From the NCBI GenBank assembly GCA_044867425.1, contig JBIOUX010000164.1, positions 1,367 through 65,366 on the forward strand: a stretch of 64,000 bases of DNA. The letters are read 5' to 3'. The translations under genes and the position numbers were made by a program. The DNA is from Acidimicrobiia bacterium. Lineage in GTDB: Bacteria > Actinomycetota > Acidimicrobiia > IMCC26256 > BP-133. Under the pieces are notes generated by a model. It was not told the origin of the DNA. It saw nothing but the letters and a program-made list of their open reading frames with translations, and searched no databases. This document shows positions 26,427 to 59,858 of the stretch, piece after piece (the first letter of the stretch is position 1; each line of letters starts with the position of its first letter).

Positions 26427-27976
26427 CACTGGACCGGAGCTTCTTCCGCACGGCCTCGGCTGTGCTGGCCGGGCTGGCGCTGACCTCCGGCGCGGCCTGC
26501 GGGTCACGCCTCGACACCCAGGCGCTCGAGAAGTCCAACGGCGCCTTCACGCGCGTGGCGGACACCGGCGGTGCGCCCGCCGTCCCGGGTCAGAGCCAGC
26601 TGACGCTCGAGGACGCCGCCGGTGCCGCTTCCTCCGAGCCGGGCTCCACCCCGGCCGCCGCCTCTACCGCCGTGGCGGTGGGGAGTCCGGCCGCGGGCCG
26701 GGTGCCGGCCGCCTCGGCCAGCCAGTCAGCGGGTGCCACCGGCGCCGTACCCTCAGCCGGGGGACAGCGAGCGGCCACGTCAGCCGCGGCGGCGTCGGGT
26801 GGGCCGGCCACGCCCACGCCCAGTGCGCCCGTCCCCGGGACGCCGGCGCCGGCCGCGCCGGGGGCCACCAAGTCCGAGATCCTCCTCGGCTCCTTCGGCT
26901 CCGAGTCCGGCATCCTGGGGGCGGTGAGCGGGCCGGCCCCGCCCGCCATCCGGGCCTGGGCCGCCTACATCAACACACAGGGGGGCGTGAACGGCCACCC
27001 GGTCAAGGTCATCCTGGGTGACGACAACGCCAACCCTTCCCGGAGCCAGGCGATCGTCCGCCAGATGGTCGAGCAGGACAAGGTCATTGCCTTCCTCAAC
27101 GAGTACTCCTTCGCGCTCGACTCGGTAATGCCCTACCTGGAGCAGAAGAAGATTCCCATCGTCGGCAGCATCGGCGGCCACCCCATCGGGGACCACTCCC
27201 CCATGATGTTCAACCCCCTGCTCGGCCCTGACGTGGGCCAGGCCTGGGGCTTCATCCTCAACACCCTCACCCAGGCGCCGGGCAAGAAGAAGATCGGGAT
27301 CCTGTACTGCCGGGAGGCCAGCATCTGCGCCGTCCTGAAGGACGGCTTCAAGAAGCTCCTGCCCTACGAGGGACTGGAGGTCGTCTACGAGGCGTTCGTG
27401 TCGCTGGCCCAGCCCGACTACACGGGCGAGGTCCTCCAGGCCCAGCGGGCCGGGGCGGACGTCATCCTTCCCCTCATCGACACGGCGGCCCTGAACCGGG
27501 TGGTGGCGTCGGCCCGGCGCCAGAACTACGAGCCCGCCTTTGTGGGGACCTACAACCTCAACCAGGACCTGATCTACAACTTCTCGGAGAACCTGGAGGG
27601 GATCTTCCTCACTTCCCGGATGGGGCCGTGGGACACATCGCCGCTCAACCAGACGTACCGAGACGCCATGGCCCGCTACCAGCCCAAGGCCGCCCGCGGC
27701 GACCTCGGTGCGGGCGTGTTCGTGGCCGGGAAGCTGCTCTCCGACAAGATCGGGCCCTTCATTCAGGAACCGCCCAGGACCGAGCAGATCCTCGAGGGCC
27801 TGTACGCGCTCCACAACGAGACCCTCGGCGGGCTCCTGCCCGGAGTGGGCTTCAAGCGCGACTCCGAGCACGTGGACACCAACCAGTGCATCATCCCGGT
27901 GAAGTTCACGGGCGGGAAGTTCGTGGCCCATCCGAAGTTCGTGTGCGCCCCGAATTGGAAGCCGGTCGGCACCTGA
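26402..27976 (+). CDS. ABC transporter substrate-binding lipoprotein (Leu/Ile/Val-type, type 1 periplasmic-binding fold), copy 1
   Basis: ATG at 26402. The lipobox is LALTSGAACGS, followed by ~130 aa of Ala/Pro/Ser/Gly-rich linker and then a LivJ-like core. It is highly similar to the protein starting at 62766. Confidence 0.85.
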   Translation: MRTLRGGIALDRSFFRTASAVLAGLALTSGAACGSRLDTQALEKSNGAFTRVADTGGAPAVPGQSQLTLEDAAGAASSEPGSTPAAASTAVAVGSPAAGRVPAASASQSAGATGAVPSAGGQRAATSAAAASGGPATPTPSAPVPGTPAPAAPGATKSEILLGSFGSESGILGAVSGPAPPAIRAWAAYINTQGGVNGHPVKVILGDDNANPSRSQAIVRQMVEQDKVIAFLNEYSFALDSVMPYLEQKKIPIVGSIGGHPIGDHSPMMFNPLLGPDVGQAWGFILNTLTQAPGKKKIGILYCREASICAVLKDGFKKLLPYEGLEVVYEAFVSLAQPDYTGEVLQAQRAGADVILPLIDTAALNRVVASARRQNYEPAFVGTYNLNQDLIYNFSENLEGIFLTSRMGPWDTSPLNQTYRDAMARYQPKAARGDLGAGVFVAGKLLSDKIGPFIQEPPRTEQILEGLYALHNETLGGLLPGVGFKRDSEHVDTNQCIIPVKFTGGKFVAHPKFVCAPNWKPVGT

Positions 27977-29076
27977 GCCTTTCGCTGGTCGACCCCACGC
28001 ACGACCAGAGCGGGCCGTCCACCTTCTGGACGACGGTCAACGCCGCCGAGGCACTGCCCGGCGTGTCCACCCCGCTCAACTGGACCGTGTTCGGGGCGCG
28101 GGTGGAGCGGGCCTTCCGGGGCACATTCGCCAACATGGGGGTCATCCCGCGGGCGGCCGTGGGTGTCCCGGCGTCGCTTGACGACCGGCTCTGGGGTGTG
28201 TTCTTCGGCCGGGCGGCGGCGAACCTCGATACCTTCCGCCGCCTGGCCGACCTGACCCCGGGCACCTCCGGCGACGCGCTGGAGGAGCAGATCTTCGGCA
28301 CCCTGCGGCCCGGCGTGACCAGCCACCCGTCGAAGCGCCGCTACCCGGCGGCGGCGGTGCGGATGCCGGTGGCGGCGCTGCGCCTGCCCCGGGTCCTGGC
28401 CCGGCACCGGGCGGACATCGAAGCCTTCTGGCGCCAGCCGGGGCCAGCCGGCACCGCCGACGCCCGGGCCCGTTTCACCGAGGCGCTCGTCCGGTTCGAG
28501 GCGGTCATGCAGCCCCACACGCTGGCCGCCATGCTGGCCCAGGGCATCTACGAGCAGCTGCGCAGGCTGTGCTCGGCGGCGGGCCGGCCCGGCCTCGAGA
28601 CCCGGCTGATGACCGGCTACGGCGCCTCCTTCGAGGAAACCTGCCTGATGGCCGACCTGTGGGCGGTGTCCCGCAACGTCCTGCCCCTGTCCGCATTTCT
28701 GGCCGCCCACGGCTACCACGGCCCAGCCGAGGGCGAGATCTCGAGCCGGTCGTGGCGGGAGGACCCCTCGCCGCTCACCGGCCTGGTGGAGACCTACCGG
28801 GGGATGGAGGAGTCCGCTTCCCCGGCGGCCGTGGAGGGTAGGCAGCGCCGGGGGCGGGACAGGGCGACGGCCGAGCTGCTCGGCGCCGTGGGCGGACGCC
28901 GGCGGACCGGAGCCCGGCTGCTGGTCAACGTGGCCAGCCGGTACATCCCCCTGCGAGAGGTGGGCAAGACCGCCTTCCTTCAAGCCGTCGATGCCGCCCG
29001 GGCGGCCGCCCGGGTCATGGGCGAGGACCTCGCCCGCCGGGGTGTGCTGGGCGACCCGGCCGACGTCTTCTATCTC
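27943..29076 (+). pseudogene. 5' part of a gene paralogous to the N-terminal region of 19544-21265, interrupted by the transposon
   Basis: The frame reads ...LVDPTHDQSGPSTFWTTVNAAEALPGVSTPLNW...DPADVFYL and then runs into the transposon IR. The start is uncertain (GTG 27943 or TTG 27955). The paralogue reads RVFYLRHTELHAAL at the equivalent point. Confidence 0.7.
29072..29076. repeat. Left copy of 5-bp target-site duplication (ATCTC)
   Basis: ATCTC lies immediately outside IR-L and is identical to 40138-40142, immediately outside IR-R. Confidence 0.8.
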
Positions 29077-29100
29077 GGGGTCTCCGGGGTAAAGGCGCCA
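29077..29100 (+). repeat. Left terminal inverted repeat (IR-L); may extend inward to about 29126
   Basis: GGGGTCTCCGGGGTAAAGGCGCCA matches the reverse complement of 40114-40137 at 23 of 24 positions. The inner part ends ...CCACTAACGG and contains the tnpA stop, as in Tn3-family IRs. Confidence 0.8.
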
Positions 29101-29121
29101 AAACGGCGGAGAATGGTTCCA

Positions 29122-29790
29122 CTAACGGCGCTTCGCTGACCTGAGGGGGCGGCGACCGCGTCGGTTGAGGACGCCGGCGACGTCGATGGTGTGGGTGCCG
29201 TAGGGATTGATCGCCTCAAAATGGCCGGGGCTGGTATGGGCGATGGCTTCTTCGCTGATCTCGTGGCCGTCGGCCCGTTCGGCATCGATGGCGTCTTGGA
29301 TGTAGCCGGTGGTGGAGAGGATGCAGGCGTTGGTCACCAGGGTGAGGCAGAGGGCCTGGGCGGTCTGGTCGTCGTGGTGGTGGTAGCGGAGGTCTCCGGA
29401 GTGGGCGAAGGCGAGGAAGCGGCGGAGGTCGTTGAGGGACTCGCCCTTGTTGAGCTGCCGGCCGATCCGCCGGCGGAAGGCCTCGTCGGTGAACCAGCGC
29501 AGGGCGTGGACGGTGCGCAACAGCTTGCCGTGTTCGAGGAGCGCCTTGGCGAGGGGTGCTGGCGGGACCCGGCCTGAAGCTTGGCCACGAGCAGGGAGGC
29601 CGAGACGTAGCCGAGTTTGAGCGAGCCGGCGATGCGCAGGAGTTCGTCCCAGTGCTCGGCGATGAGATCGATCTGGGCGTGGTGGTCGAGGAGCGGGCCT
29701 GCCCGGGGCCAGCCGGTGTAGCGACCCGGCGGATGGGGGCGCCAGAGCTGCCGCTCGGTGAGTTTGGCGATCCGGGGAGCCGATGCGTCG
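29122..29790 (-). pseudogene. tnpA: Tn3-family transposase, C-terminal ~220 codons only, with a frameshift
   Basis: Frame B covers 29122-29556 (AKALLEHGKLLRTVHALRWFTDEAFRRRIGRQLNKGESLNDLRRFLAFAHSGDLRYHHHDDQTAQALCLTLVTNACILSTTGY...). Frame A covers 29557-29790 (APRIAKLTERQLW...IAEHWDELLRIAGSLKLGYVSASLLVAKLQAGSRQHP). The shift is at the G-run 29553-29556. There is no homology upstream of about 29790. Confidence 0.8.
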
Positions 29791-30004
29791 CCAGGATGCA
29801 GGCATCCTTCTCATCTCACCCTTTGGTCACGCCCGCGATCGTTGCGGCACCTGATGGAATCCGGTGCGCTACGTCATCCGTGCGCCGTCTCGGTGGTGTG
29901 GTATTCGATGCCGCACCAGGACCGGCCTTCGACAGCAAAATGGAGCTCCGAAGGTTTACCCCTGGTAGGGGGAATCGCGACACCTGAACGACCCCAGAGG
30001 AGGA

Positions 30005-30870
30005 GTGGGTTCCCCGGTCATGAAAGAGGCTCCCGGTCCTAATCAGGCTGACGGTGTGGACGGCGAGCAGAAACACGCAAGGGTTCCTCAACGCCGCAAG
30101 TGGCCGTTCGTCGTCGGCAGTGGCGTTCTCCTCGCCACCGTCGCTGCCTGGGGCTGGGATGTCTGGCTCCCTAACTTTCGTCCGGGCCTCCGGGCGGGTG
30201 AGGAGTATGGGATTGACGTCTCCAACCACCAGGGAAGCATCGATTGGGGTCGTGTAGCCCGGGACGGCATCTCGTTCGCGTACATCAAGGCCAGTGAAGG
30301 CGGGGATTTCATCGACCGCCGCTTCGCCGACAACTGGGCTGGGCCAGCGAGGCGGGGATCGCACGTGGCGCCTACCACTTCTACACCCTCTGCACGCCAG
30401 GGAACCTCCAGGCCTGGAACTTCCTCCGGACCGTGCCGGTTGACTCCAACTCACTGGCGCCCGCGGTGGACTTGGAACTCAAGGGCAACTGTCGGGAGCG
30501 ACCTGACGGCGTCACTGTGGAACGTGAACTCACGACATTCCTGCGTAGCGTCGAGTCCACGATGGGCAAGGTGATGGTCCTCTACGTCGGTGACGACTTT
30601 GAGGACCGGTACCCCGTCCGCACATCGTTCCAGCGGCCCCTCTGGCACCGACGCTTCCTACGCCGGCCCGATGTCGACGACTGGGTCATCTGGCAGGTAC
30701 ACGGTTCCGCGCGTGTCGACGGCGTGAAAGGTCGTGTGGATTTCAACGTGATGCGCCAACCCCCAAGACGCCGAACTGCCCCACCAAGTAGGCCTCGCGC
30801 TCGTGTATCGTCCCTCCAACCCCTCCTCAACAGAAAAGCACGCTCGCAACCACGACTGTCGACGAGCTGA
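30005..30870 (+). pseudogene. GH25 muramidase (lysozyme) with N-terminal TM anchor, disrupted by a -1 frameshift
   Basis: Frame 2 reads GIDVSNHQGSIDWGRVARDGISFAYIKASEGGDFIDRRFADNWAG. The continuation EAGIARGAYHFYTLC...APAVDLELKG...WVIWQVHGSARVDGVKGRVDFNV is in frame 1. The junction is at GGG 30341-30343. Confidence 0.75.
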
Positions 30871-31342
30871 CCTTTCGTGACGCAGCTCTGATCAGTCGTT
30901 TCTCTTCAGAGTCTCGAGAATCATCAACGAAGAACCCGGACGCGGAATCCAAAGAAATACAGGCACCGCTCTTCGAATCGATGGCAGCGTTGCGACTCGT
31001 GACCTTCCATCCTTGGGCACGAAGGGGCTCAAGGATGGCTGCCATACCTTCTTCAGCGCTCCTGAGCCCCTTGAATGAGAGAACGACCAACCGAGTCTTT
31101 TGCTCAGCTGAGCCGCCCCCTTGGACGCTCTCGTTAAGAACGATCTCCGCCGAAGAAGGAAGAGGGCCGAGGATGCTGAGCTTCGGCGCTGGGTGCGTAC
31201 GATTCCACAGCCCCATGGCCACCACAAAGAAGACAAGAGACAGTGTGACGACGGCTAGGATCATCCATAATATTCGACGGGCAGCACTGCCCCGCCTCGC
31301 CTTACGACCCTCGGTGTGGTGCGCGACCGCCGAACTGTTCAC
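30827..31342 (-). CDS. Membrane-anchored hypothetical protein (171 aa) in lower-GC block
   Basis: The ORF has the N-terminal TM helix ILWMILAVVTLSLVFFVVAMGLW. It is last in the Rhs-strand gene string. One 60-nt line here counts only 28 G+C. Confidence 0.5.
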   Translation of the reverse strand: MNSSAVAHHTEGRKARRGSAARRILWMILAVVTLSLVFFVVAMGLWNRTHPAPKLSILGPLPSSAEIVLNESVQGGGSAEQKTRLVVLSFKGLRSAEEGMAAILEPLRAQGWKVTSRNAAIDSKSGACISLDSASGFFVDDSRDSEEKRLIRAASRKVSSSTVVVASVLFC

Positions 31343-31629
31343 GACTTGTACTCCTTACTCCGCGAGATCTGGTTGGATAGGCGGTCATAGCTCTTGCCTC
31401 GGGGTTTGGCGGCCTTCCCGTTGAATTTGGTGGCCCGCAGATCCGAAATCCTGCCCTCACCAAAGCCATAGGCGATGAATGCCTCGCGGTCAGACAAGCC
31501 ATACTTGTTCTGGAACTCCGCGAGGTACTCAGCGGCCATAGCGATGGCGAAGCCGGTGTCATAAACAAGCTTCTTACGCGCTGTCCTCGTGTCTATGCCT
31601 GCGAGACGGGCAGCGACGTCGGGACGCAT
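31339..31629 (-). CDS. Hypothetical protein (96 aa)
   Basis: The ORF stop overlaps the next gene's start (ATGA-type overlap at 31339-31342). No motif was recognised. It conflicts with the 31574-31771 ORF over 56 nt. Confidence 0.4.
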   Translation of the reverse strand: MRPDVAARLAGIDTRTARKKLVYDTGFAIAMAAEYLAEFQNKYGLSDREAFIAYGFGEGRISDLRATKFNGKAAKPRGKSYDRLSNQISRSKEYKS

Positions 31630-31771
31630 CTGACCGATTTGCCGCCCAAGAGAGAAGGGGCGTGGTGAGCGCCATTTCGCTGTCAGGCAGAGCGATGAGA
31701 GCTAGGGCGTAGGCAAGAAGACCACCCAATGCGGACAGCAGCACACCGCCTAGATCGCGTTTAGTTGCCAA
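31574..31771 (-). CDS. Possible small TM protein (65 aa)
   Basis: The N-terminal 30 aa are hydrophobic (GGVLLSALGGLLAYALALIAL) and the rest is Arg-rich. It overlaps the neighbouring ORF, so at most one of the two is likely to be real as drawn. Confidence 0.25.
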   Translation of the reverse strand: MATKRDLGGVLLSALGGLLAYALALIALPDSEMALTTPLLSWAANRSDASRRRCPSRRHRHEDSA

Positions 31772-31829
31772 GCTTCACGCGTACTTTCGGTCGAAGGCTG
31801 TTCTGGTTGAATGTGAACCGTAAGCTCAC

Positions 31830-32195
31830 CTAGCCCTTGGCGCAGCTCGGCCCTCTGATGTCGAACGTCCGGCGGTCATCGTCCGAATGTGGAACAGGGA
31901 GCAATTGCCCGATGGCACCATCGACTGCTGTCGCCGACAAGGTCAGACCGTCGGCATCGTTGTCGAAAACCGAGAAAGCAACCGCTCTGCCTGGAGCAAT
32001 ACGCTCACCCCGTGTAGTGGCCATGTCCTCCGGCTGCGCCGAACCGGATTCTCGAACTCTGACCCAGACCTCATGACTGCACTGGTTCGAGACGATCAAT
32101 GTCTTCGCACGATCCCCCGGAAGGCAGGCCGCCAGGGCCGCGCTCGAACACAGACAAAGCGCTATCCGAAACAAGAGCCTCGAGGGTCGAGACAT
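31830..32195 (-). CDS. Lipoprotein (121 aa), candidate immunity protein for the Rhs toxin tip
   Basis: The start MSRPSRLLFRIALCLCSSAALAAC carries the lipobox LAAC. The start codon at 32193-32195 lies 13 nt downstream of the Rhs stop (32209-32211), on the same strand. Confidence 0.55.
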   Translation of the reverse strand: MSRPSRLLFRIALCLCSSAALAACLPGDRAKTLIVSNQCSHEVWVRVRESGSAQPEDMATTRGERIAPGRAVAFSVFDNDADGLTLSATAVDGAIGQLLPVPHSDDDRRTFDIRGPSCAKG

Positions 32196-32208
32196 CAAGG
32201 GAATAGGC

Positions 32209-35200
32209 TCACGCCGAGCTAGTGCCATATCGACGGTTGACGCTGTAGTTCGGTTCGGTTGTCTCGCCTCGGACCTCTGGACAACCACCGCCGCCTCGTG
32301 CTGTGTACGCTTCCCGCTCATACTTGTTCCGGCACCCTGTCCCGCGCTTAGCCGCCTCGATCAGGTACTTGATCCCGAATTTGTCCCCGTACTTCTCCCA
32401 TTGTCCTACGTGAACGAGTTCGTGAGCCAGCAGGGAATCGCACGATCCCCCGCAGAAAATGAAGTGGCCATAGGTGACGGCACCAGCGCCGGGATCGGCA
32501 CTGGGAAGCCGCTTGACGTTTTGCACACAGAACACCGGTTGGCCGCTCTTGCTCCGTGCGCACTCGGTGACGACGCCTCCCGAGTTCGCCACGAGTCGGT
32601 TCCTGGCAAGATTGTCCGTGATGTTTGGTCCCTTCGAGTTGACAGGTTTGCAGGCCTCCCAGATTCCGAAGGGACCTCGCACCTTCCTATACCCGGGGCC
32701 ACATCCGTTCTTGCCCTTGCCTTTGGGGGCGTGGCCGTCGTCGTAGTAGCCGACGGGGTTGGCGGCTGCGTAGAGGTAGCGGTTGCCGGTGAGGGCATCG
32801 ACGCCGAGAGCGAGGTCCAGGCCGCCGGCGACGAAGCTGTCTTCGGTGGTGAATCGGCGGATGCTGGGGTCGTATTGGCGGTCTTTGAGGATGAGCGCTC
32901 TGGTTGTACCAGCGGAGCCGGGTGTGCGGTCGGTGAGGGCGTGCTGGTAGCCGAGGGAGGAGCGACCGTAGCTGGAGCTGGTGGTCTTGCCGGCGCCGCC
33001 GGTCTTGGGTTGGCCGTAGGGGTCGAAGGCGGCCTGTTCGAGCACCACCCCCGTATCGTCGCAGACGGTGCCGACGTTGCCGGCCAGGTCGCCGAGGAGC
33101 CAGTTCCAGGTGGCGGTGGCGTTGCGGTCGCCGGTGGAGGTGCGGTGGGATTCCTGGGCTACTGCTTGGCCGGTGTCGTCGGTGAGGTAGCGGACCATGG
33201 TTTGGCCGGTGCCGTCGGTTTCTTCGGCGAGGGTGTCGCCAGAACCCCAGTAGAAGTAGAGGGTGGTCTTGGCCGAGCCGCTCTCGAACGGGTCCGTGCG
33301 GGCGATGAGCCCACCATCGGCGTCGTAGACGTAGTTGATGTCGTATTGGTTGAGGGTCTTGTCGTCGTGGCCGGCGGCGTGGCCGGCCGGGTCGTAGCTG
33401 GTGCTTCGAGTGGCCGACGGGTTCGAGGGGCAGCTGAAGACGCTGGTGTAGCCGAAGTAGCGGCTGGTCTCTTCGCCGAGGGCGTCGTACCAGAACTTTT
33501 CGCAGTCGGCCTCGTAGATGAGGCTGGAGTAGACGGTCACTCGGCTGGTGAGCCGCCCATCGGTGAATGTCGAGGTGGCGGTGGTCCGGGTGGAGCCGCT
33601 GCCGGCGGTGGCGCCGGTGCGGGCGATTTCCTGGGTGATGTTGCCGCCGTCGTCGAGGGTGTAGACGGTGTTCTGGGAGCTGTCGGACGTCTCGGCGAAG
33701 GGCGCCACCCAGCTGGTGAGCCGGTTGAGGGCGTCGTAGGCGAACTTGGCCGTCCCGCTGGTGGTCGAGCTGGCCCCGGGCTGACGGAGGGCGACGGCCT
33801 CTTGGGTGCGCTGGCCGCCGTCGTCGTAGAGCACCCCGGTGTGGGAGCGCAGCACGTTGGCGCCCGCATTCCAGGTCAGCGAGGTGGGGGCGCCGTTGCG
33901 CTGGTAGTCCCACGTCCCGGTGAGGGCATTGTTGTTCCGCTGGGCGGTCTTGAGCGCCCCGGAGGGGAAGTAGGCGTTGGTCGATGCCCGGCTACGCCAG
34001 TCCGTCATGGAGGTGAGCCACCCGGCCGGGGAATGGTCGTAGCTGGTGAGCCGCCCGTCCCAGGTGGCGGAGTCGAGGGCGCCGTCGGCTTCGTAGGCGA
34101 AGCTCTGGGTGCGGCTGTAGGAGGTGCCGTTGTCGGGGGAGCGCAGCGTCTGGGTTGAGCTGGTCATCCAGTTGTTGGCCGCCGCGTAGGCGAATGTCTG
34201 GGTCTTCAGGGTGGTGCCGCCGGCGGTGCAGCCGGTCGTGCCGGAGACGGTGCGGGTCACGAGGGGGTTGCCGTCGGCGTCGTAGCCGCTGGTCAGGTCG
34301 CCGGCGCCGTCGGCGTAGTTGCAGGTGGCCAGGGTGGTGCCGGCGGTCTCGTTCTTGGCGACCTCGGACTGGAGGGTGCCGTCGGGATTGTAGACGGAGG
34401 CGACCCGGCGCACGTTGGTGGCGCCGTCCTTGTCGAGCCGTTCGGTCTGCCGTCCCTCGCCGTCGTAGCTGTAGGCCACGGTGTGGCTGGGGTTCTCCGG
34501 GTCCTTGGTCTGGGCGGAGAGCCGGCCGAGGGCGTCGTAGCGGTAGAGCGACTCCAAGGTGGCGCCGGCCCCGGTGGGTTGGGCGGTGCGCACCTGGTTG
34601 CCAGCCTGGTCGTAGCCGACCTCGGCGTCGACCCAGGTGGTGGCCGTCTTGTAGCGGCGGGTGCGGGTCACCTCGGCGAAGGGGCTGTAGGTCTGTTCGG
34701 TGGTGTGGGAGAAGGTGCCGACCTTGCCCGGCCCCTTGGTCTGGAGCGGCTCGCCGTGGGCGTTGTAGGCGTACAGGGTGGTCTGGGTCTGGGTGGCGTT
34801 GGCGATCACCTGCTGCTGGGCCACCGCCCCGGAGGGGGTGTAGGTGAAGGTGGTGCGGGCTCGTTCGTTGGTGGTGTTGCCGGCGGGGGCGTCCACCTGG
34901 GTGACCCGTCCGGCGGTGTCGTAGCCATAGTCGGTCACGGCCCGGTCGATGCTGTTGGCGGTCTGGCCGGGGGCGTCGATCTGCTTGAGCGTCCGGTTGG
35001 GGGTGTAGGCGAAGTTGATCTGGCTACTCGATCGAGGGGTCGTCTCGGCGGTCTTGGCGCCGTCGTCGGCGTAGGTGACGGTGGCGACTCGCCTCGGGTC
35101 GGTGGGGTTGGCGCCGGGCCAGGAGGCTTGGGTCTGCCAGTCGTTGTTGTCGTAGGTCCAGATGGTGGTGAAGTCGTCGGCGACGCTCGGGGTGAGCTGG

Positions 35201-38200
35201 CCCCGGGGGGTCGTGTCCCTGGTCTTGTTGTCGTTGGCGTCGAAGGCCGACGTGATCCGGTTCCCCTTGGGATCGACCATCTCGACGAGGTTGTCGCGGT
35301 CGTCGTAGCGCCACTTGGTGATCCGGTTGTCCCGGTCGGTTTCCTTCACCGTGGGGCCGTAGGGGCTGTACTGGAACGTTTTGGTCTTGGCGGCGGCGTC
35401 GGTGATCCGAGTGGGGGCTCCGGTGCGGTCGTAGGCGCCGTTGGCGGCATCGGCTGTGTCGCCGTAGGTGGTCAGGTCGTCGGCGGGGTAGAGGCCGTCG
35501 TTGGCGGTTTCGCCCCGGGGGCCGTCGACGGTCTTGAGGGCTCCGGAGGTGTAGTAGGCGAAGGTGGTCGTGCGGTCGCCGGTGCACACGCCGGTGCTGC
35601 TGGAACAGGAGGGGGCCTGCGCGGCGCCGTCCGAGCGGTAGCGCTCGATGACGCTGCGGAGGTTGCCGGTGGCCGCGTCGGGGTCGAAGTCCACTACCCG
35701 CTGGGCGGTGTCACCGGAGGCGTAGGTGGCCTTGAGGAGGTCGGCGACCATGTAGCAGTAGCCTTCCTCGGTGACGTTGGCGTTGCCGGGGGCGGGATCG
35801 GTGCAGCCCGACGGGTGGCGCCAGGCGGCGTCGTAGCGGTAGGCGAGCTTGTGGGTCACGGCCACCTTGGGGGCCCCGGTGGGCAGGTCGTTGCGGCCGG
35901 GGTCGTTGGGGGCGGGTTCGGTGATCTCCACCAGGAGACCCAAGTCGTTGTACTTCATCTTCGTCTCGTTGCCGAGCCCGTCCTTCTTGGAGTAGAGGCG
36001 GTTCTCCTCCCAGGAGAACTGGCGGGTCACCGCCCCGGCGCCGAAGCCGGCGTCGATGATGGCGATGATGTTGCCGCCGGCGATGCGCCGGTCTGCCCCC
36101 GTGGGTTGGATCGCCCCCCGGCCCGAGGTGCGGTAGGTGACCTGGTCGGCCGCCGGGGAGGTCACCACCGTGTCCTGCTGGCCGGTGGTCGGATCCGGGG
36201 TGCCGTAGGCGAAGGCCCACGTCTTGGGGGTGGGCTGGGGGCTCTGGCGCCGGTCGGTCAGCGTGGTCATCTGGGCGGAATAGCCGCTGCCCGTGTAGGC
36301 GAAGCGGGTGGTGTTGCCCCGCCCGTCCTTGACCGAGGTGAGCTGCCCGCTGGTGTAGGCGAACTCGGTGGTGCGGGCGGCGTCACTGCCGCTCTGAGCG
36401 TTTTCGTTCACCTTCCACAGGCGGCCGTTGGCGTCGTAGACGAAGTCCACCCACCGCTCGTAAGAGCGGGTGGCGCCGCTCACCGGCTCCACGTCGGTCA
36501 CCCCCTGCAGGGTGGTGATCCGCGACAGGCGCCCTGTCGTGGCGTCCCAGGTCAGGCTGGCCACCACGCCGTTGCGGTTGTGGCTGATCGAGCTCAGGCG
36601 CACCTGGCCGGCGGCCAGGTTGTAGTCGAAGGTCAACGTGTCGCCGCGGCGGTCCCGGATCGAGGTGACCCGCCACGTATTGGTGGTCAGTCCCAGGGCG
36701 GGCTTGACCACCTTGAGGTTCTCCGCCTTGTAGATCACCCCGTCGGGTCGGACGAGCTCGTAGGCCGTGACCACCCCGCCGCTGACGACCTCCCGAACTC
36801 GCAGGCTCACCCCCGGCGGGGAGTCCCACCGTGATCCGATGCCGCCCTTGCGGATGAACCGCTGGGTGGTCCCGTCGCCGTCGGTGAACTCCAGCAGGTA
36901 GCCGGCGATGGTCCCTGCCCCGTCGACCACGGTGGCCGACGCCGCGGTCATCGGCGCGGCCACGTCGAAGTCCTCCAAGGCGCCTTCCACGCCGTCGAGG
37001 CCGGCGTCGAGGTCACTCACCGACAGCGACCAGCCCTGGCTCAGCCCGTTGTCGTGCAGCACGCTCGACTGGCGCTGGGAGTTGTAGACGTGGCGGATCA
37101 CCGTATTCAGCCCCTGGTTGGGGATCGTGGCGTCGTCGAAGCTGGCCGTCAGGTTGCCCGAACGCAGCTGCACGTAGCCCGTTCCCGACGAGCCGAGGGG
37201 GAACGACTTGTAGGGGGCGAACTGCTCCAGGCCGACCTGGTCGGACTGGGCCACCATGTCGGGCAGCAGGGTGGGGGAGAGCGTGACCGGATCGGCGGTG
37301 GAGTCGATGCAGATCGGCCCGTAGACCTGATCGGTGGTGTTCTTGTTGCCGGCCTTGTCGACGGTGGCGACGTGGAACCAGTAGGTGCCGTCGGCGTTGA
37401 CCGGCACCGTGTAGGTGGCGCTGAGCCCGGTGGTGTCCACCGTGTTGTCGGGAGCGGCCGCCTGGTCGTTGTTGAACACCCACGAGTAGCCCAGCACCCC
37501 CGAGGTGACGTCCGCGCCGGCGAGCCAGTTCATGCTGATCGTCCGGATCGAGGTGCACAAGTACTTGGCGTGGCTACTGGTGGTGATGGTCGGCGCGGTC
37601 GGCGGGGTGCTGTCCACCCAGATCCCGTAGTGGCGGGCAGAATCGGACCACCAGCCGGCGTTGTCCTTGGCCCGGGCGTGGACGTACCACTGCCCGTCGG
37701 CCGTGATCGAGGTGCTGTTGGTGTAGCTACCGGTGCTGTTCACCGTCGCGCCGGGGAGCGTGGAGGAGGACTGGTCGACTGATGCCGAGTACCCGGCGAT
37801 GCCGCTGGTGTCGCCCGACGGACCGCTGATGGCGGCGGCAACCGTCCGGCTCGAGTACCACTGCGCGCCCGGGGGGCTCTCCACTCCATGGCTGGAGCTC
37901 GTCAGGGTCGGTGTCCCCGGTTTGACGGTGTCGACGGTGAAGCTGGCCCAGACCGGTCCGCTGCGCTGGCGGAAGTCGTCGGCTTCTGCCGACCAGCTGT
38001 GGTAGCCCTGGCCGAGGGCGCCGGTGGTGACGCAGCCCCGGCCGTTGTTGCCCAGCGTGGCGCTGTTCCCGGACCAGACCTGGGTGCCGCCGCTGTTGTA
38101 GACCCGGAAGACGACGTAGCCGGTGTCGGCGCTGCCGGGGTTGCCCAGGTTGGGGTCCGTCCATGTCGCGCACAGCTGCGGCGTGGTGGTCGTCTGGTAG

Positions 38201-39726
38201 CCGCCGTTGGGGGCGAGGGCGCTGGCGGTGGGGGGCAGGTTGTAGACGACCCGGATGTAGGAGAGGTTGAGGAGGTCCTCGTCGGAGATGAAGGTGAAGA
38301 AGCTGTAGGGCTCCCCGCCGCTGTCGACCACGATGCCCCGGTTGTTCCAGCCGCTCTGGGAGTAGTGGGTCCAGTTGTGCACCCAGGGTTGGATGTCATG
38401 GGCGACGTACCCGCTGGCGCCCGGCCCGTAGCACTTGGAGTAGTTTCCGTCGCACAGCCCGCTCGAGAAGTGGTTCGGGCGGGTGTTGAATGTCACCGTG
38501 TTCGGGTCGTAGGGGTCGGCCACCGGCCAGAGGACGTAGCGGCTGGTGGGGTTCTGCCCCTGGATGTAGCGGTACGCGACCCATTGGCCAGTGAGGATGT
38601 TCTGGTTGTTCGCCGCGCTGAGGTCGTAGAGGAAGTAGCTGTCGTACTCCACGGTGCAGCAGGGGTAGCCGGTGTAGCCGGCCTTGGTGACGAAGCCGCC
38701 GTTGGCGGGGTCGTACTGGCCGCCCAGCGACTCGGCCCAGGTGCCTTGCTGGGTCCAGGTGGGCTGGTTGCTGCGGACGTACGAGTCCCACGAGTCGCCC
38801 CAGTCCTTGGGGAAGCGCACGTCGGGGTCGATCTTGACCGGCCACACGGTGGCCGGGTCGTCCAGCAGGCTCCGGGGGGCCTCCACCTCCACGACCAGAC
38901 CGGCGCCGTCGTCGACCAGGCGCACCGCCACCGGCGCCTGGCGGGGCTGTTGTCCGGTGGCCGGGTCGCCGCTGGAGTCCCAGGCCGCCCCTTGGTTGGG
39001 GATGGACGCGACCCGGATCCCGGCGGCGTCGTAGAAGCCGAAGCTGCCGTCGGCGCCCTGGTGGGCGGCGACGCCGGAGAGCTCGAGCGGGAAACGGAAC
39101 ACGCCGCTGCCCGCTGCGGCTGCGTTGGGCAGGCTGAGGATTTCCTTCACGACGTCGCGGCCCACCGTGTACTCCACGTCGGCGCCGCCCAGCAGACCGG
39201 GGTAGCGGACGGTGTTGCGGTCGGTCGCCGCCGCCACCGATGGCAGCATCCCCTCCAGGGTGAACCCGACGGACCAGGCGTCGGTGCCGACCTGGACCAG
39301 CGGGCCGCCGCCGGAGACGCCGGCGAAGCTCGCCGTGATCGGGCCGGAGCGGTTTCTGAATCGGCCGAGCCCGTCGGAGATGACAGTGGCGTCGAGTGGC
39401 ACCCAGCGCCCGTCCGGCGCCTGCCAGTTGACCGGCCCGGCATAGGCGAACAGCTCCCCGTTGCCGTCGGGGCGGCGGAACACGTTCGTGGTGTCCGTAC
39501 GCTGCAGCAGTTCCAGATCGGGCGGGTCCAGCGGTCCCACGTCCAGCAGGGTGGCTGTCGCCCACGGCCCCGGCGGCGGGGGGAGCGGCGGCGGTTCCTC
39601 CGCTGCTGCCGGACGCACCGGCAGACCGGTGGCCAGCACAGCCACCAGCAGGCTGAGGGTCAGCGCCCGAACGCTTCGCCCGCCCTGCCCCGAGCGCCCG
39701 CGCGTGAGGATCTTCGACAGCTTCAT
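32209..39726 (-). CDS. Rhs/YD-repeat polymorphic toxin, Sec signal peptide, WapA-like architecture
   Basis: 2505 aa.
- Signal peptide: RALTLSLLVAVLATGLPVRPAAA.
- N-terminal DNRLRE-like carbohydrate-binding-type domain (LWPVADPYDPNTVTFNTRP).
- Two Ig-like modules (VDTVKPGTPT, VDSTPPTAPT).
- Dozens of YD repeats (YDANGRL, YDALGRL, YDGEGRQ, YDADGNP).
- Core end: DRQYDPSIRRFTTED...NRYLYAAANPVGYY.
- A 171-aa C-terminal tip containing HELVH. Confidence 0.92.
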   Translation of the reverse strand: MKLSKILTRGRSGQGGRSVRALTLSLLVAVLATGLPVRPAAAEEPPPLPPPPGPWATATLLDVGPLDPPDLELLQRTDTTNVFRRPDGNGELFAYAGPVNWQAPDGRWVPLDATVISDGLGRFRNRSGPITASFAGVSGGGPLVQVGTDAWSVGFTLEGMLPSVAAATDRNTVRYPGLLGGADVEYTVGRDVVKEILSLPNAAAAGSGVFRFPLELSGVAAHQGADGSFGFYDAAGIRVASIPNQGAAWDSSGDPATGQQPRQAPVAVRLVDDGAGLVVEVEAPRSLLDDPATVWPVKIDPDVRFPKDWGDSWDSYVRSNQPTWTQQGTWAESLGGQYDPANGGFVTKAGYTGYPCCTVEYDSYFLYDLSAANNQNILTGQWVAYRYIQGQNPTSRYVLWPVADPYDPNTVTFNTRPNHFSSGLCDGNYSKCYGPGASGYVAHDIQPWVHNWTHYSQSGWNNRGIVVDSGGEPYSFFTFISDEDLLNLSYIRVVYNLPPTASALAPNGGYQTTTTPQLCATWTDPNLGNPGSADTGYVVFRVYNSGGTQVWSGNSATLGNNGRGCVTTGALGQGYHSWSAEADDFRQRSGPVWASFTVDTVKPGTPTLTSSSHGVESPPGAQWYSSRTVAAAISGPSGDTSGIAGYSASVDQSSSTLPGATVNSTGSYTNSTSITADGQWYVHARAKDNAGWWSDSARHYGIWVDSTPPTAPTITTSSHAKYLCTSIRTISMNWLAGADVTSGVLGYSWVFNNDQAAAPDNTVDTTGLSATYTVPVNADGTYWFHVATVDKAGNKNTTDQVYGPICIDSTADPVTLSPTLLPDMVAQSDQVGLEQFAPYKSFPLGSSGTGYVQLRSGNLTASFDDATIPNQGLNTVIRHVYNSQRQSSVLHDNGLSQGWSLSVSDLDAGLDGVEGALEDFDVAAPMTAASATVVDGAGTIAGYLLEFTDGDGTTQRFIRKGGIGSRWDSPPGVSLRVREVVSGGVVTAYELVRPDGVIYKAENLKVVKPALGLTTNTWRVTSIRDRRGDTLTFDYNLAAGQVRLSSISHNRNGVVASLTWDATTGRLSRITTLQGVTDVEPVSGATRSYERWVDFVYDANGRLWKVNENAQSGSDAARTTEFAYTSGQLTSVKDGRGNTTRFAYTGSGYSAQMTTLTDRRQSPQPTPKTWAFAYGTPDPTTGQQDTVVTSPAADQVTYRTSGRGAIQPTGADRRIAGGNIIAIIDAGFGAGAVTRQFSWEENRLYSKKDGLGNETKMKYNDLGLLVEITEPAPNDPGRNDLPTGAPKVAVTHKLAYRYDAAWRHPSGCTDPAPGNANVTEEGYCYMVADLLKATYASGDTAQRVVDFDPDAATGNLRSVIERYRSDGAAQAPSCSSSTGVCTGDRTTTFAYYTSGALKTVDGPRGETANDGLYPADDLTTYGDTADAANGAYDRTGAPTRITDAAAKTKTFQYSPYGPTVKETDRDNRITKWRYDDRDNLVEMVDPKGNRITSAFDANDNKTRDTTPRGQLTPSVADDFTTIWTYDNNDWQTQASWPGANPTDPRRVATVTYADDGAKTAETTPRSSSQINFAYTPNRTLKQIDAPGQTANSIDRAVTDYGYDTAGRVTQVDAPAGNTTNERARTTFTYTPSGAVAQQQVIANATQTQTTLYAYNAHGEPLQTKGPGKVGTFSHTTEQTYSPFAEVTRTRRYKTATTWVDAEVGYDQAGNQVRTAQPTGAGATLESLYRYDALGRLSAQTKDPENPSHTVAYSYDGEGRQTERLDKDGATNVRRVASVYNPDGTLQSEVAKNETAGTTLATCNYADGAGDLTSGYDADGNPLVTRTVSGTTGCTAGGTTLKTQTFAYAAANNWMTSSTQTLRSPDNGTSYSRTQSFAYEADGALDSATWDGRLTSYDHSPAGWLTSMTDWRSRASTNAYFPSGALKTAQRNNNALTGTWDYQRNGAPTSLTWNAGANVLRSHTGVLYDDGGQRTQEAVALRQPGASSTTSGTAKFAYDALNRLTSWVAPFAETSDSSQNTVYTLDDGGNITQEIARTGATAGSGSTRTTATSTFTDGRLTSRVTVYSSLIYEADCEKFWYDALGEETSRYFGYTSVFSCPSNPSATRSTSYDPAGHAAGHDDKTLNQYDINYVYDADGGLIARTDPFESGSAKTTLYFYWGSGDTLAEETDGTGQTMVRYLTDDTGQAVAQESHRTSTGDRNATATWNWLLGDLAGNVGTVCDDTGVVLEQAAFDPYGQPKTGGAGKTTSSSYGRSSLGYQHALTDRTPGSAGTTRALILKDRQYDPSIRRFTTEDSFVAGGLDLALGVDALTGNRYLYAAANPVGYYDDGHAPKGKGKNGCGPGYRKVRGPFGIWEACKPVNSKGPNITDNLARNRLVANSGGVVTECARSKSGQPVFCVQNVKRLPSADPGAGAVTYGHFIFCGGSCDSLLAHELVHVGQWEKYGDKFGIKYLIEAAKRGTGCRNKYEREAYTARGGGGCPEVRGETTEPNYSVNRRYGTSSA

Positions 39727-39907
39727 GTCGCAACTCGCCCTTCGTCAGAAATACCGCCGATGACGTCGGCGCAGGCGAAGGGCGCACTTGAAAACGCCCC
39801 GAAGATTCAGGGCCGACTGCTGGACTTCGAGGCGGTTCTCAAGTCGCCGGCGGGTCGTGCCGATGGGTCGGCTTCTGCAGCGGTCAGCTGAGCGGCGGAA
39901 CCGGCTG

Positions 39908-39934
39908 CCTTACGTCCTTACGTCCTTACGTCCT
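39908..39934. repeat. 8-bp tandem repeat CCTTACGT x3 (+CCT)
   Basis: Read directly from the sequence at 39908-39915, 39916-39923 and 39924-39931. It lies about 180 bp upstream of the Rhs start codon. Confidence 0.9.
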
Positions 39935-40004
39935 GTGGGCTGGGCCAACCCGTCTCGCCGTCCGCGACTCACTCCTCAGCGGGCCGACGAAATGCGGCGC
40001 TTCC

Positions 40005-40112
40005 CCCCTCTTCGCGATGATCACGCACTACCGCCACCGCGACGACCAGACCGCCCAGGTCCGCTGCCTCACCCTGGTGACCAACGCCTGCATCCTCTCC
40101 ACCACCGGCTAC
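40005..40112 (+). pseudogene. tnpA: Internal ~100-bp fragment of Tn3-family transposase fused to IR-R
   Basis: It translates as PLFAMITHYRHRDDQTAQVRCLTLVTNACILSTTGY. Bases 40040-40112 match the reverse complement of 29302-29374 at 71 of 73 positions. Confidence 0.8.
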
Positions 40113-40113
40113 G

Positions 40114-40137
40114 TGGCGCCGTTACCCCGGAGACCCC
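40114..40137 (-). repeat. Right terminal inverted repeat (IR-R), inner part deleted
   Basis: The reverse complement is GGGGTCTCCGGGGTAACGGCGCCA, which matches IR-L at 23/24 positions. Confidence 0.8.
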
Positions 40138-40142
40138 ATCTC
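40138..40142. repeat. Right copy of 5-bp target-site duplication (ATCTC)
   Basis: Identical to 29072-29076. Confidence 0.8.
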
Positions 40143-40367
40143 ACCGTGGACGAGCTGCTGGGCCAGCCTCCATCAGAGGCGAAGGAGGTGGTGGCCTTCC
40201 GCCGCGACCGCCGGGAGGAGTACCTGGGCCTGCGCCTGCCCGACTCCTGGACGGGCCAGCCGGTTCCTGTTCCCATCGAGGTGGGCACCGCCCGGCTCCG
40301 CACCGGCGACTTCCTCCGGGTCGACGGCGACGCCGGGGTGGTCTCCGTCCTGGCCTGCGCCGGGTAG
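40143..40367 (+). pseudogene. 3' part of the transposon-interrupted gene
   Basis: It reads TVDELLGQPPSEAKEVVAFRRDRREEYLGLRLPDSW...IEVGTARLRTGDFLRVDGDAGVVSVL, which is collinear with ...HTELHAALAGGEGPGTDEIERRHRAHQDCLALDLPE...VKVGTEMAVSGSTVTVDGSAGEVQL of the 19544 paralogue. It is in frame with 29076. Confidence 0.7.
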
Positions 40368-48432: not shown

Positions 48433-50370
48433 TCAGGGTGCGCTGCGGTGGGTGCCGGGCCCGATGTGGTCCACCGTCGCCGTACGGTCGTGGGTCGGGT
48501 TGGGCTCGACGCCGGGACCCTTGCCGGCCTGGATCTTCCACGGGGTCATCTCGTCGGCCACCACCGGCACGCCGGCCAGGTCCGCCGCCCGCCGGGAGTG
48601 CCGGTAGGCGGACCGGGCGTTGGTGAAAGCCGCCGGATAGTCGTGAATGGAGAGCGATGCCTGTGCTGCCCCCGCGTCCCGGTCGGCCAGGGTCAGCTCC
48701 GCCATCCCGGCCGCGGCCGCGTCGCTGCCGAGCACAAGAGCGGCGATGGCGTTCGTGCTCCGGAGCAGACCGGCGGCCTGGAACCGGTCCATGTTGTCGC
48801 GGTCGAAGACGCTGAAATCCCAGTTGAGGTCGATGTAGCTCATCACCGAGTTGACCTCATCGGCCACCCAGGCGAAGTAGAACTTGCCGTCGGGCACGAT
48901 TTCGATTGCCTCGCCCGGGTCATAGCCGTCGTGCGGATGGCCCAGTCCCAGGTGGTGTCCCATCTCGTGGATGTGCGTCACGGTGGTCCCGTTGCCCTCG
49001 GCCACGCTCGCCGGAGTGAGGGCGTTGATCATCAGACTCTGGGTGCCGTCGAACCAGTTGTGATCCGCCATACCCAGGAAATCGGTGTTGTCCTGGGCGA
49101 TGTAGTAGGCCACCACCGCTTCGTACTCGCCGCCCCCGTCGCGCACCTCGTCGAGATGCTGGGCGTGGCGGAGGAAGAAGTTGGCGGGCCACGGATAGGC
49201 CGAGAGCTCGGGGTAGCAGGGCGCCTTCCGGATGTACTGGTGGAAGCAGACCTCGGCGTCGTTCTGGAGCGGTTGCTCCTGGCGGTCGAACGTGAGCGGG
49301 GTGCGGACCAGCTTGCGAAGCTCCTTGAGCATGTACCCGGGTTGCAGGTAGGCGCCGGACAGGCTGGGCCCGCGATGGCGGTAGATGTTCACGTCGATGT
49401 TGATGGAGGACGGCAGGCGGTGCGGAGTCAGGTACGGCGGGTAGACCGGCGAGGCGGCGAAGAGGAGATCGATGGCGGCGTAACGCGCCACCCGAGCGAG
49501 GTCGCCGGTGAGATCCCCCCGGTGCCGGTCCCCACCGGGGGTCAGGTACTCCCAGACCGGCGGAAAACGGCGATCGGCCTTCTTGTCACCGTCGATATCT
49601 GCGTCGTCGACGTTCCAGCCGCCGGTCGCGTGGTCCGGACCGGCCGAGAGGTCGTGGAACCACACCCGGTGCGCCGGGCCGCCGGTGCCGGTTTCCTCGT
49701 CGTCGGGCGGAGTGCCACCCCAGGCGATCAGCTTGCGGCTCTGGCGGTTGAACCCGAAGTCATAGCCGGTATCGGGATCGGGCTCCCCGAACTTGGTGTA
49801 GGTGTGGAACCGGAAGTCGCTCCGCCCCCACCAGTTCACGAACACGACCGTGTTGCGGGTGAGATCGACGCCGGGCGGCGGATGCTGGATCAGCCAGCGT
49901 TCCACGCTGGGCGCATCGATGAAGTGGTTCACCCCCACGTCGAGGACATTGCCCGCCTGGCTGTTGTACAGGTCCTGGTACAGCGTCCGGGGCCGGCCGT
50001 CCACGCCCTGCTGGGGAACAGCCAGAGCCGACAACGCCCCGAAGAAGGCGTTGGTGTAGGCCCCGCCGGCGAACACCAGCCGGTAGTCGAAGGTGTAATC
50101 AAGGCCGACAGGCTCCGTCTTCTTGAACCAGAGACGGGATCGCACGACCGGCGCCGACCCCTTCGGCAGGCGGCCGAGGAACCCCGTCCGCCGTACGAGG
50201 CGGTCGTCGTAGCCCACGAAAACGAACTGGACCGGGAGCCGCTCGGTGAGATGGGCGGGGCCGCCGGGGTCCAGGTGGGCGAACCCCTTCTTGGGGTGGG
50301 GCCCGGCCGCCGCGCCGGTCGCCCCCGCGAGCATCACAGCCGCCAATGCAAGCACCGGCCACCGTCGCAT
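48433..50370 (-). CDS. Secreted zinc metalloprotease, metzincin-type motif
   Basis: 645 aa with the signal peptide WPVLALAAVMLAGATGAAAG. HEMGHHLGLGHPHDG fits HExxHxxGxxH. Confidence 0.75.
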   Translation of the reverse strand: MRRWPVLALAAVMLAGATGAAAGPHPKKGFAHLDPGGPAHLTERLPVQFVFVGYDDRLVRRTGFLGRLPKGSAPVVRSRLWFKKTEPVGLDYTFDYRLVFAGGAYTNAFFGALSALAVPQQGVDGRPRTLYQDLYNSQAGNVLDVGVNHFIDAPSVERWLIQHPPPGVDLTRNTVVFVNWWGRSDFRFHTYTKFGEPDPDTGYDFGFNRQSRKLIAWGGTPPDDEETGTGGPAHRVWFHDLSAGPDHATGGWNVDDADIDGDKKADRRFPPVWEYLTPGGDRHRGDLTGDLARVARYAAIDLLFAASPVYPPYLTPHRLPSSINIDVNIYRHRGPSLSGAYLQPGYMLKELRKLVRTPLTFDRQEQPLQNDAEVCFHQYIRKAPCYPELSAYPWPANFFLRHAQHLDEVRDGGGEYEAVVAYYIAQDNTDFLGMADHNWFDGTQSLMINALTPASVAEGNGTTVTHIHEMGHHLGLGHPHDGYDPGEAIEIVPDGKFYFAWVADEVNSVMSYIDLNWDFSVFDRDNMDRFQAAGLLRSTNAIAALVLGSDAAAAGMAELTLADRDAGAAQASLSIHDYPAAFTNARSAYRHSRRAADLAGVPVVADEMTPWKIQAGKGPGVEPNPTHDRTATVDHIGPGTHRSAP

Positions 50371-50462
50371 GGCTCCCCCTCATCGCCCTCGATACCCACG
50401 CGTAGGTGCGCCAGCCACGGTAGTCCGTTCCTGGAACAACGGCCACAGGTGGAGAGGGCGGC

Positions 50463-51230: not shown

Positions 51231-51251
51231 GTCACCCTTCCCTGCTCGCCG

Positions 51252-54418: not shown

Positions 54419-54456
54419 GTTGCCCCCCGACCCCCCGACATTTGACCCCAAAATTC

Positions 54457-54480: not shown

Positions 54481-54510
54481 TTAGGGCACCGGCCGGCCGT
54501 CTGCCACCCG

Positions 54511-59856: not shown

Positions 59857-59858
59857 GC

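Follow-up and report, generated by a model that had tools for sequence, protein, structure and literature searches.

That polymorphic toxins travel from one genome to another is known, but the vehicles that carry them have rarely been defined to the base pair. Here we analyze a 64,000-nt stretch of DNA from an Acidimicrobiia bacterium (contig JBIOUX010000164.1; the window), in which the gene of a Rhs/YD polymorphic toxin and its candidate immunity gene lie between inverted repeats (IRs) of the Tn3 type. Sec-dependent Rhs toxins of Gram-positive bacteria, such as WapA of Bacillus subtilis, combine a Sec signal, a YD/Rhs shell and a variable C-terminal toxin domain (CT) with an immunity gene that lies next to them, and they make no use of type VI or type VII secretion systems (T6SS and T7SS). 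WapA carries cell-wall-binding repeats, and its toxin is a tRNase countered by a cytosolic immunity protein. In Rhs effectors of the T6SS (structures 7q97 and 8qja, and Tse5), a YD shell likewise ends in a core motif that precedes the toxin. Among transposons, the mobile insertion cassettes (MICs) and TnXax1 derivatives of Xanthomonas have Tn3-family IRs, lack a transposase, span 3-19 kb, are flanked by 5-bp target-site duplications (TSDs) and carry effector cargo (Ferreira et al. 2015, PMC4337579). Supernumerary or degenerate IRs and leftovers of transposition genes are frequent in these cassettes, and TnXax1 also encodes a murein lytic transglycosylase (PMC4337579). The toxins VgrG2b-Cter and Tpe1, which are annotated with DUF4157, have their site of action in the periplasm. 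The proteins that confer immunity against them carry conserved Cys and are periplasmic, lipoproteins or anchored to the membrane (Wood et al. 2019, PMC6899460). More generally, toxins acting at the surface are accompanied by secreted or transmembrane (TM) immunity proteins, lipoprotein immunity being exceptional (Zhang et al. 2012, PMC3482391).

We consider it probable that the locus, from an uncultured soil actinobacterium, encodes a Sec-exported Rhs toxin with a lipoprotein immunity protein, housed in a Tn3-derived cassette that transposed once and has since decayed. The locus offers a clean example, from a poorly studied soil lineage of actinobacteria, of a 7.5-kb Rhs toxin-immunity operon within Tn3-type ends, with boundaries, TSD and restored target all in hand. 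A literature search returned no description of Rhs as cargo of the Tn3 family, an absence from full texts that is no proof of novelty.

The evidence for the insertion is precise. Two 24-nt inverted repeats, at positions 29077-29100 and 40114-40137, differ by a single mismatch (GGGGTCTCCGGGGTAA[A/C]GGCGCCA), and no such pair is expected by chance. Immediately outside each copy lies the pentanucleotide ATCTC (29072-29076 on the left, 40138-40142 on the right), a 5-bp duplication of the kind that is the hallmark of the Tn3 family. The repeats bound a segment of 11,061 bp (29077-40137), of which the Rhs open reading frame (ORF) takes up 7,518 bp (68%), as the initial annotation had estimated. When positions 27943-29076 are joined to positions 40143-40367, so that the segment and one ATCTC are removed, a single reading frame is restored, and its product aligns without gaps over the junction (DVFYL to the left, TVDELLG to the right) with an intact ortholog of 538 aa (P0015; 86% identity). 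Consequently, the insertion is real, and the earlier interpretation of the IRs and TSD as its traces stands. The interrupted host gene belongs to the phosphoenolpyruvate (PEP)-utilizing/Rph_4th family; its 5' part (27943-29076, forward strand) matches PF27448 and is a called gene in a sister contig (L001), and its 3' part (40143-40367, forward strand) is defined by the alignment with P0015. Since the Rhs gene is located inside this interrupted gene, it cannot be ancestral at the site.

The same structure is present in two independent assemblies of metagenome-assembled genomes (MAGs): a contig of 75.9 kb, to which the window belongs, and JBIOTU010000279.1, a contig of 124 kb (GCA_044866285.1; L001). 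Over 27.5 kb (window positions 22209-49726) the two differ by 8 substitutions, at positions 28980, 29622, 29643, 31838, 36049, 36862, 41594 and 48173; the window's Rhs protein is identical to that recorded at NCBI for the 75.9-kb contig (P0285) and one residue away from that of JBIOTU010000279.1 (P0001). These two sister MAGs thus carry the same insertion. The 398-aa product of the target gene truncated by the IR (P0016) recurs in two Logan contigs, and relatives of the flanking gene come mostly from MAGs of Acidimicrobiia and other Actinomycetota. The interrupted gene has also lost about 80 aa through an in-frame deletion that covers the PEP-utilizers mobile domain (P0015 residues ~429-509), and it is decaying after its inactivation.

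The ends of the segment define what kind of element this is. The left terminal IR (29077-29127, forward strand; GGGGTCTCCGGGGTAAAGGCGCCAAAACGGCGGAGAATGGTTCCACTAACG) has its full length of about 51 nt, an extent set by conservation in 29 other ends (2 from MAGs and 27 from metagenome contigs), and its outer 24 nt pair with 40114-40137. Next comes the 3' end, ~219 codons, of a Tn3-family transposase gene (tnpA; 29122-29779, reverse strand), with a 1-nt deletion near 29553 and a truncation at 29779; this remnant matches Pfam DDE_Tnp_Tn3 (1.5e-34, profile positions 266-388 of 389) and positions 829-951 of 954 in NF033527. On the right, 85 nt (40028-40112, forward strand; ~28 codons) equal positions 29302-29386 inverted, at 95% identity, and stem from the 3' end of a second tnpA in inverted orientation. 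The right terminal IR (40114-40137, reverse strand) retains its outer 24 nt, the inner ~27 nt having been deleted together with 174 nt of the arm, so that the right arm lacks 201 bp relative to the left. Against the usual Tn3 repeat of about 38 bp or more starting with GGGG, the left IR is complete at 51 nt and the right one has only its outer 24 nt. The transposase of Tn3 binds the inner portion of the IR; the truncation of the right IR must therefore post-date insertion, and the cassette is now immobile. No recombinase domain that could represent a resolvase or other cointegrate-resolution module (tnpR/res, tnpI/irs or tnpS-tnpT) was detected in any ORF between the IRs, and a promoter and terminator scan within the element was uninformative.

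The segment is therefore not a working transposon but a defective, non-autonomous cassette of pseudo-compound layout, in which both ends are tnpA-proximal and inverted relative to each other: passenger genes lie within inverted transposon ends, a TSD flanks them, and the element has no transposase of its own. The initial annotation had spoken of a transposon with the Rhs gene as its main passenger; the inserted segment is upheld, whereas there is no intact tnpA and no resolvase at all, the right repeat keeps 24 of ~51 nt, and the status of passenger is deduced from one event. As in the Xanthomonas MICs, secreted 'weapon' genes are enclosed by Tn3-type IRs, the element has no transposase of its own and the TSD is of 5 bp. 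Unlike them, the cassette resides in a high-GC Gram-positive lineage, its cargo is a Rhs toxin with an immunity gene instead of effectors of the type III secretion system, both its arms are tnpA-proximal, its IR tip reads GGGGTC and not GAGGG, and it is known as one copy, in contrast to the many recurrences of MICs.

The Rhs ORF (32209-39726, reverse strand; 2505 codons, 7,518 bp) encodes a protein of 2505 aa. Its GC content at third codon positions (GC3) is 0.92, as in the neighboring host genes, and this together with its matches to the RHS_repeat and YD families establishes it as a genuine gene and not an artefact of high-GC DNA. The protein matches Pfam RHS_repeat (PF05593; 1.6e-16) and the YD repeat TIGR01643 (7.8e-16), a near-identical public protein carries a precomputed TEN_YD-shell annotation (PF25023), and the Rhs structures 8qja and 7q97 are matched in the PDB. 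The multiple YD/RHS repeats make up the shell expected of this toxin class (32737-37179, reverse strand), which closes with a recognizable, divergent core-like motif (RQYDPSIRRF...NRYLYAAANPVGYYDDGH); the usual Rhs core motif is PxxxxDPxGL, and the NPVGYYDDGH of the window departs from it. Identity with homologs breaks exactly after this motif, and the identity of the ORF as a Rhs/YD polymorphic toxin is supported, in agreement with the initial annotation.

Export is predicted to proceed via Sec. Six K/R residues at the N-terminus precede a hydrophobic core of 15 residues (ALTLSLLVAVLATGL), after which comes PAAA/EE, and equivalent N-termini appear in two Rhs homologs (L002, L003) when their ORFs are read from an upstream start. 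The signal peptide (aa 1-42; 39601-39726, reverse strand; predicted cleavage AAA/EE; possible Shine-Dalgarno sequence GAAGGG upstream) was called heuristically, from charge and hydrophobicity, from n-, h- and c-regions with an AxA site and from conservation in three homologs, and the earlier call of a classical signal peptide agrees with it. A signal for the twin-arginine (Tat) pathway was rejected, as there is no twin-arginine motif. Downstream of the signal lie a DNRLRE-like domain (aa 314-483; 38278-38787, reverse strand; NF033679, E=1.1e-6, 28.8 bits, under the cut-off of 34) and Ig-like repeats of the Big_13/OmpL47 type (aa ~600-830; 37237-37929, reverse strand; weak and below cut-offs). 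The profile searches proposed at the outset thus returned the RHS repeat with confidence, and the RHS core, DNRLRE and Ig-like domains as sub-threshold matches.

The comparison with WapA holds in part. The N-terminal Sec-type signal, the YD shell, the variable CT and the immediately downstream immunity gene are shared, as is the lack of T6SS and T7SS elements: Pfam scans of the protein found no PAAR, VgrG, LXG or WXG domain, and the Pfam annotation of the 64-kb window contains no PAAR, VgrG, WXG100, LXG or Ecc component, as had been claimed. Unlike WapA, the protein has no wall-binding repeats, LysM, SLH or LPXTG in Pfam and NCBIfam scans, and has DNRLRE-like and Ig-like domains instead; furthermore, its CT is a Cys-rich HExxH domain of extracytoplasmic appearance with a lipoprotein partner, and not a cytoplasmic nuclease with cytosolic immunity. 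The WapA-type architecture of the initial annotation consequently applies to export and scaffold, and does not extend to wall binding or to the mode of toxicity and immunity. Compared with T6SS Rhs effectors, the shell and the core motif ahead of the toxin are alike, whereas PAAR, VgrG and chaperone are missing and export would depend on the predicted signal peptide.

The CT comprises 175 aa (aa 2331-2505, counted from G2331 in what follows; 32212-32736, reverse strand) and is rare. A word-indexed search gave 3 matches, and an exhaustive profile search gave 235 matches at E<=1e-3 among 1.84 billion representative proteins, the domain being C-terminal in every one of them and the host proteins reaching ~2.5 kaa. 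RHS_repeat occurs in 15 of 43 relatives of the domain, and others have PA14, CBM96, Laminin_G_3 or SpvB. Across these 43, H105, E106, H109, Y124, E140 and A143 are invariant and three Cys are near-invariant; H105, E106 and H109 form the HExxH motif, for which E140 is a candidate third ligand. PF13699 (eCIS_core, formerly DUF4157) is matched at E<=0.1 by 20 of 25 relatives, the best at 2.6e-6, and the window's CT is a marginal, divergent relative of this family. Scans with NCBIfam and PHROG gave no match, and profile searches of PDB sequences with a CT-only alignment gave none either, the full-length alignment matching Rhs shells only. A first AlphaFold2 (AF2) model from 4 sequences had a predicted local distance difference test score (pLDDT) of 60, with nothing significant in Foldseek; a second, from 43 sequences, was confident (pLDDT 84, predicted template modelling score 0.72).

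These features suggest that the CT is a disulfide-rich, zinc-metallopeptidase-like domain acting outside the cytoplasmic membrane on a substrate in the cell envelope. The extracytoplasmic site is indicated by conserved Cys in both toxin and partner, by the lipobox of the partner and by analogy with VgrG2b-Cter and Tpe1. As in the CT of VgrG2b and in the Tpe1-Tpi1 pair (PMC6899460), a small HExxH domain of the DUF4157 type has a predicted action beyond the cytoplasmic membrane and an immunity protein that bears Cys. However, those toxins are fused to T6SS spikes in Proteobacteria, and the domain described here has its own Cys pattern and a conserved downstream Glu.

The candidate immunity gene (31830-32195, reverse strand) starts 13 nt after the Rhs stop codon and encodes a lipoprotein of 121 aa, with a lipobox (LAAC), a mature N-terminus C-LPGD and two further invariant Cys; NCBIfam and PHROG scans found no family match. 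It is 47% identical (E=2e-32) to the ORF that follows the same toxin in L003, and homologous lipoproteins with N-terminus C-LPG(D/E) and two further invariant Cys lie 3' of the toxin domain in the metagenome loci L037 and L038. A lipoprotein therefore directly follows the toxin domain in all four loci (window, L003, L037 and L038). The linkage is also seen where the toxin has been exchanged. The closest Rhs relative (P0002, in L002; 75% identity) has an unrelated CT from right after NPVGYYDDGH and a different, multi-TM next ORF, whereas the other (P0003, in L003; 67% identity) retains both the CT and a downstream lipoprotein homolog, so that toxin and downstream ORF were swapped together in one and kept together in the other. 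The locus shows the exchangeable C-terminal toxin and the adjoining cognate immunity gene expected of a polymorphic toxin, and the 121-aa lipoprotein is a candidate immunity protein that would shield the producer. Toxin and lipoprotein form an uncharacterised pair, whose features suggest killing from the outer side of the membrane.

Some further observations concern this pair. In L037 (2083-2924) and L038 (3-1138), the same toxin domain is found on short or truncated ORFs, each then followed by its C-LPG(D/E) lipoprotein, and the pair in L037 adjoins a helix-turn-helix regulator and a primase-like gene; these pairs may be orphan or displaced toxin-immunity modules. Of the proteins concerned, P0135 has an end of the DPINQFDLNGL type and P0137 a Rhs-core end.

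Relatives of the transposon and relatives of its cargo lead to different places. The left end is 96.3% identical over 704 nt to a contig from a soil metagenome (L034), in which a TnpA frame of at least 1002 aa is open; a second soil contig (L013) is likewise ~96% identical, and intact relatives of the transposon thus occur in soil metagenomes. Compared with both, the left arm has a 1-nt deletion, and the homology stops at 29779. Scans of genome and metagenome collections for the IR found 29 further ends, in 27 soil-metagenome contigs and 2 MAGs. The outer 24-26 nt are common to at least five subterminal sequence types (L010-L036, L004, L005), one contig (L017) combines a 76%-identical tnpA end with a second IR in the same orientation, and L004 and L005 are solitary ends beside unrelated genes. 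The ensemble suggests a diverse Tn3 subfamily in soil Actinomycetota. The Rhs lineage itself numbers three proteins, including that of the window, among 5.8 billion proteins, and the two relatives reside in other islands rich in mobile elements, with integrases, IS21, IS30 and toxin-antitoxin genes. The L003 locus also lies near HicAB and ParE/Phd pairs and a phage-type integrase. Between 17720 and 20706 it contains an IS30-type element (39-nt IRs at 17720-17758 and 20431-20469) next to or within a Tn3-family tnpA fragment (20413-20706) some 8 kb from Rhs; this fragment is an unrelated remnant split by the IS30-type element.

Several results weigh against the reading of a once-transposed cassette that delivers an envelope-acting toxin, and they deserve to be set out together. 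The search for an empty site in the same species was negative, 86% identity being the highest for any intact ortholog of the target, and no intact TnpA (~1000 aa) occurs between the IRs or elsewhere in the 64-kb window. The 85-nt fragment of the right arm has 4 private substitutions with respect to the left arm and L013 (5 with respect to L034), and the arms therefore do not stem from a recent duplication. The cassette is known from one site only, in the two sister MAGs, with no known recurrence at a different site, and a search of the two Rhs-relative loci for the IR (up to 3 mismatches) and for inverted repeats in general revealed no bracket. The interior is compositionally mosaic, with a Rhs GC3 of 0.92 beside a block of 60% GC, which implies that it was assembled in several steps, some possibly after insertion. 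At the protein level, the Rhs-associated core TIGR03696 scores 25.2 bits against a cut-off of 32.5, the CT scores 17.1-17.5 bits against the PF13699 cut-off of 22, and the confident CT model has no significant structural neighbor in the PDB (best Foldseek E=1.1), so that its assignment as a peptidase rests on the motif.

Some of these results would be expected had a Tn3-derived structure, consisting of two inverted copies or a rearranged one, inserted without the Rhs gene, the Rhs operon and the low-GC block entering later and the same deletions removing tnpA; Rhs would then never have been transposed by Tn3. The mosaic composition fits such a history, as do the heavily deleted arms of an interior clearly remodelled after insertion and the company of the Rhs relatives, which is integrases, IS21 and IS30 and not Tn3 IRs. 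The search for the same repeats around other Rhs loci also came out negative, with no homolog of the Rhs, immunity or glycoside hydrolase family 25 (GH25) genes on any of the 29 other IR-bearing contigs and none of these IRs around the two Rhs relatives. However, no repeats, integrase, insertion sequence (IS) end, att-like repeat or other recombination-site signature mark the internal junctions (29779/29780 and 40027/40028), any DNA enclosed by a pair of inverted transposon ends is by construction cargo of a compound element, and later entry needs an extra, unrecorded event. We regard it as unlikely, and the presence of Rhs between the arms at the moment of transposition as the most economical reading. 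A chimera generated by metagenome assembly at a repeated transposon end was considered because the source is a MAG and because most metagenome contigs with this IR either are short or break off at the repeat or close to it. It was rejected as hardly credible: two separate assemblies agree over the same 27.5 kb with 8 single-nucleotide differences, the same 5-bp duplication stands at both junctions around one restorable ORF, and the IR-truncated product recurs in Logan assemblies.

The site and target of the toxin can also be read differently. The CT could act in the cytoplasm after translocation into target cells, as the toxins of WapA and CdiA do, or it could serve in processing or as an adaptor, the lipoprotein then having another role, for example as a receptor or export helper. 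The lack of a structural match to a characterised peptidase leaves room for such roles, and two reports describe DUF4157/eCIS_core in the cargo of contractile injection systems acting inside target cells (PMC8213781, PMC11297309). Yet the invariant or near-invariant Cys of the toxin, together with the two invariant Cys and lipobox of the partner, suggest an oxidising, extracytoplasmic site, the two genes are strictly linked in four of four loci and were swapped together in P0002, and a processing module placed last in the protein has nothing downstream to process; these alternative roles appear to us quite doubtful. The profile of the Rhs core also matches the shells of TcC, teneurin and SGS in the PDB, and N-terminal domains of carbohydrate-binding type could bind eukaryotic surfaces, so that a Tc-toxin- or teneurin-like protein directed at insects, protists or fungi might be imagined in place of an interbacterial toxin. 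There is no TcA/TcB partner or SpvB domain within the window, and a tightly linked, co-varying immunity gene implies a producer that is itself susceptible, which makes an anti-eukaryotic role very improbable.

Under the favored reading of a Sec-exported toxin in a once-transposed cassette, a cleavable signal peptide would carry the Rhs protein over the membrane through Sec, and the DNRLRE-like and Ig-like N-terminal domains would probably serve in surface retention or targeting. The YD shell would enclose the 175-aa CT and release it at the Rhs core motif, presumably by autoproteolysis, for zinc-dependent proteolysis of an envelope component, and the producer would be shielded by the small lipoprotein on its surface, whose gene starts 13 nt further on. 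The toxin-immunity operon and a decayed block of cell-wall-hydrolase genes would together have formed the contents of the 11-kb non-autonomous cassette, which would have moved once, as a unit, into the PEP-utilizing gene by means of its two outer IRs, creating the 5-bp duplication. Transposase may have been supplied by the arms, if then intact, or in trans, and deletions and a frameshift would later have immobilised the cassette.

As a wider hypothesis, such cassettes may be a route for the spread of toxins. In its strongest form, Tn3-family ends would package whole Rhs toxin-immunity operons into trans-mobilisable cassettes in soil Actinomycetota, and the cargo would represent a new toxin family, made up of disulfide-rich metallopeptidases that are delivered by Sec and Rhs, strike the Gram-positive envelope from its outer side and have a dedicated lipoprotein as their antagonist. 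We hold this full version to be rather unlikely, and the general claim is unproven because the element is a single, decayed copy. If true, it would constitute a previously unreported route for spreading polymorphic toxins, and if the arrangement recurs, the 'effector cassette' concept of Xanthomonas would extend to interbacterial toxins of Gram-positive bacteria.

The remaining contents of the cassette lie in a block of 60% GC between the left arm and the Rhs operon (29780-32200), in a window of ~71% G+C. The block holds a frameshifted, endolysin-like GH25 muramidase pseudogene (30005-30870, forward strand), with Glyco_hydro_25 in two overlapping frames and PHROG endolysin matches. It also contains an ORF of 171 aa with one N-terminal TM helix (30827-31342, reverse strand) that matches no family in Pfam, NCBIfam or PHROG, and an ORF of 96 aa (31339-31629, reverse strand; a called gene in the public record) with weak similarity to the SLT lytic transglycosylase domain (Pfam E=6.5e-4, below cut-off) and no match in NCBIfam or PHROG scans. 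The SLT-like ORF is translationally coupled to the single-TM ORF, which follows it, via an ATGA overlap. The block may represent a second decayed pair of cell-wall toxin and immunity genes, or a remnant of a phage or conjugative element.

Beyond the cassette, paralogs of the interrupted gene are found nearby at 19544-21265 and elsewhere on the same contig (P0089). All other parts of the window have a metabolic or housekeeping character, with genes for a penicillin-binding protein, glycoside hydrolase family 15, aldehyde and acyl-CoA dehydrogenases, cytochromes P450, parts of ATP-binding cassette transporters and TetR. Positions 50000-64000 contain acyl-CoA dehydrogenases, a Rieske KshA-like oxygenase, P450s, luciferase-like monooxygenases and TetR regulators, a cluster that resembles a steroid or lipid catabolic locus and is unrelated to the Rhs cassette.

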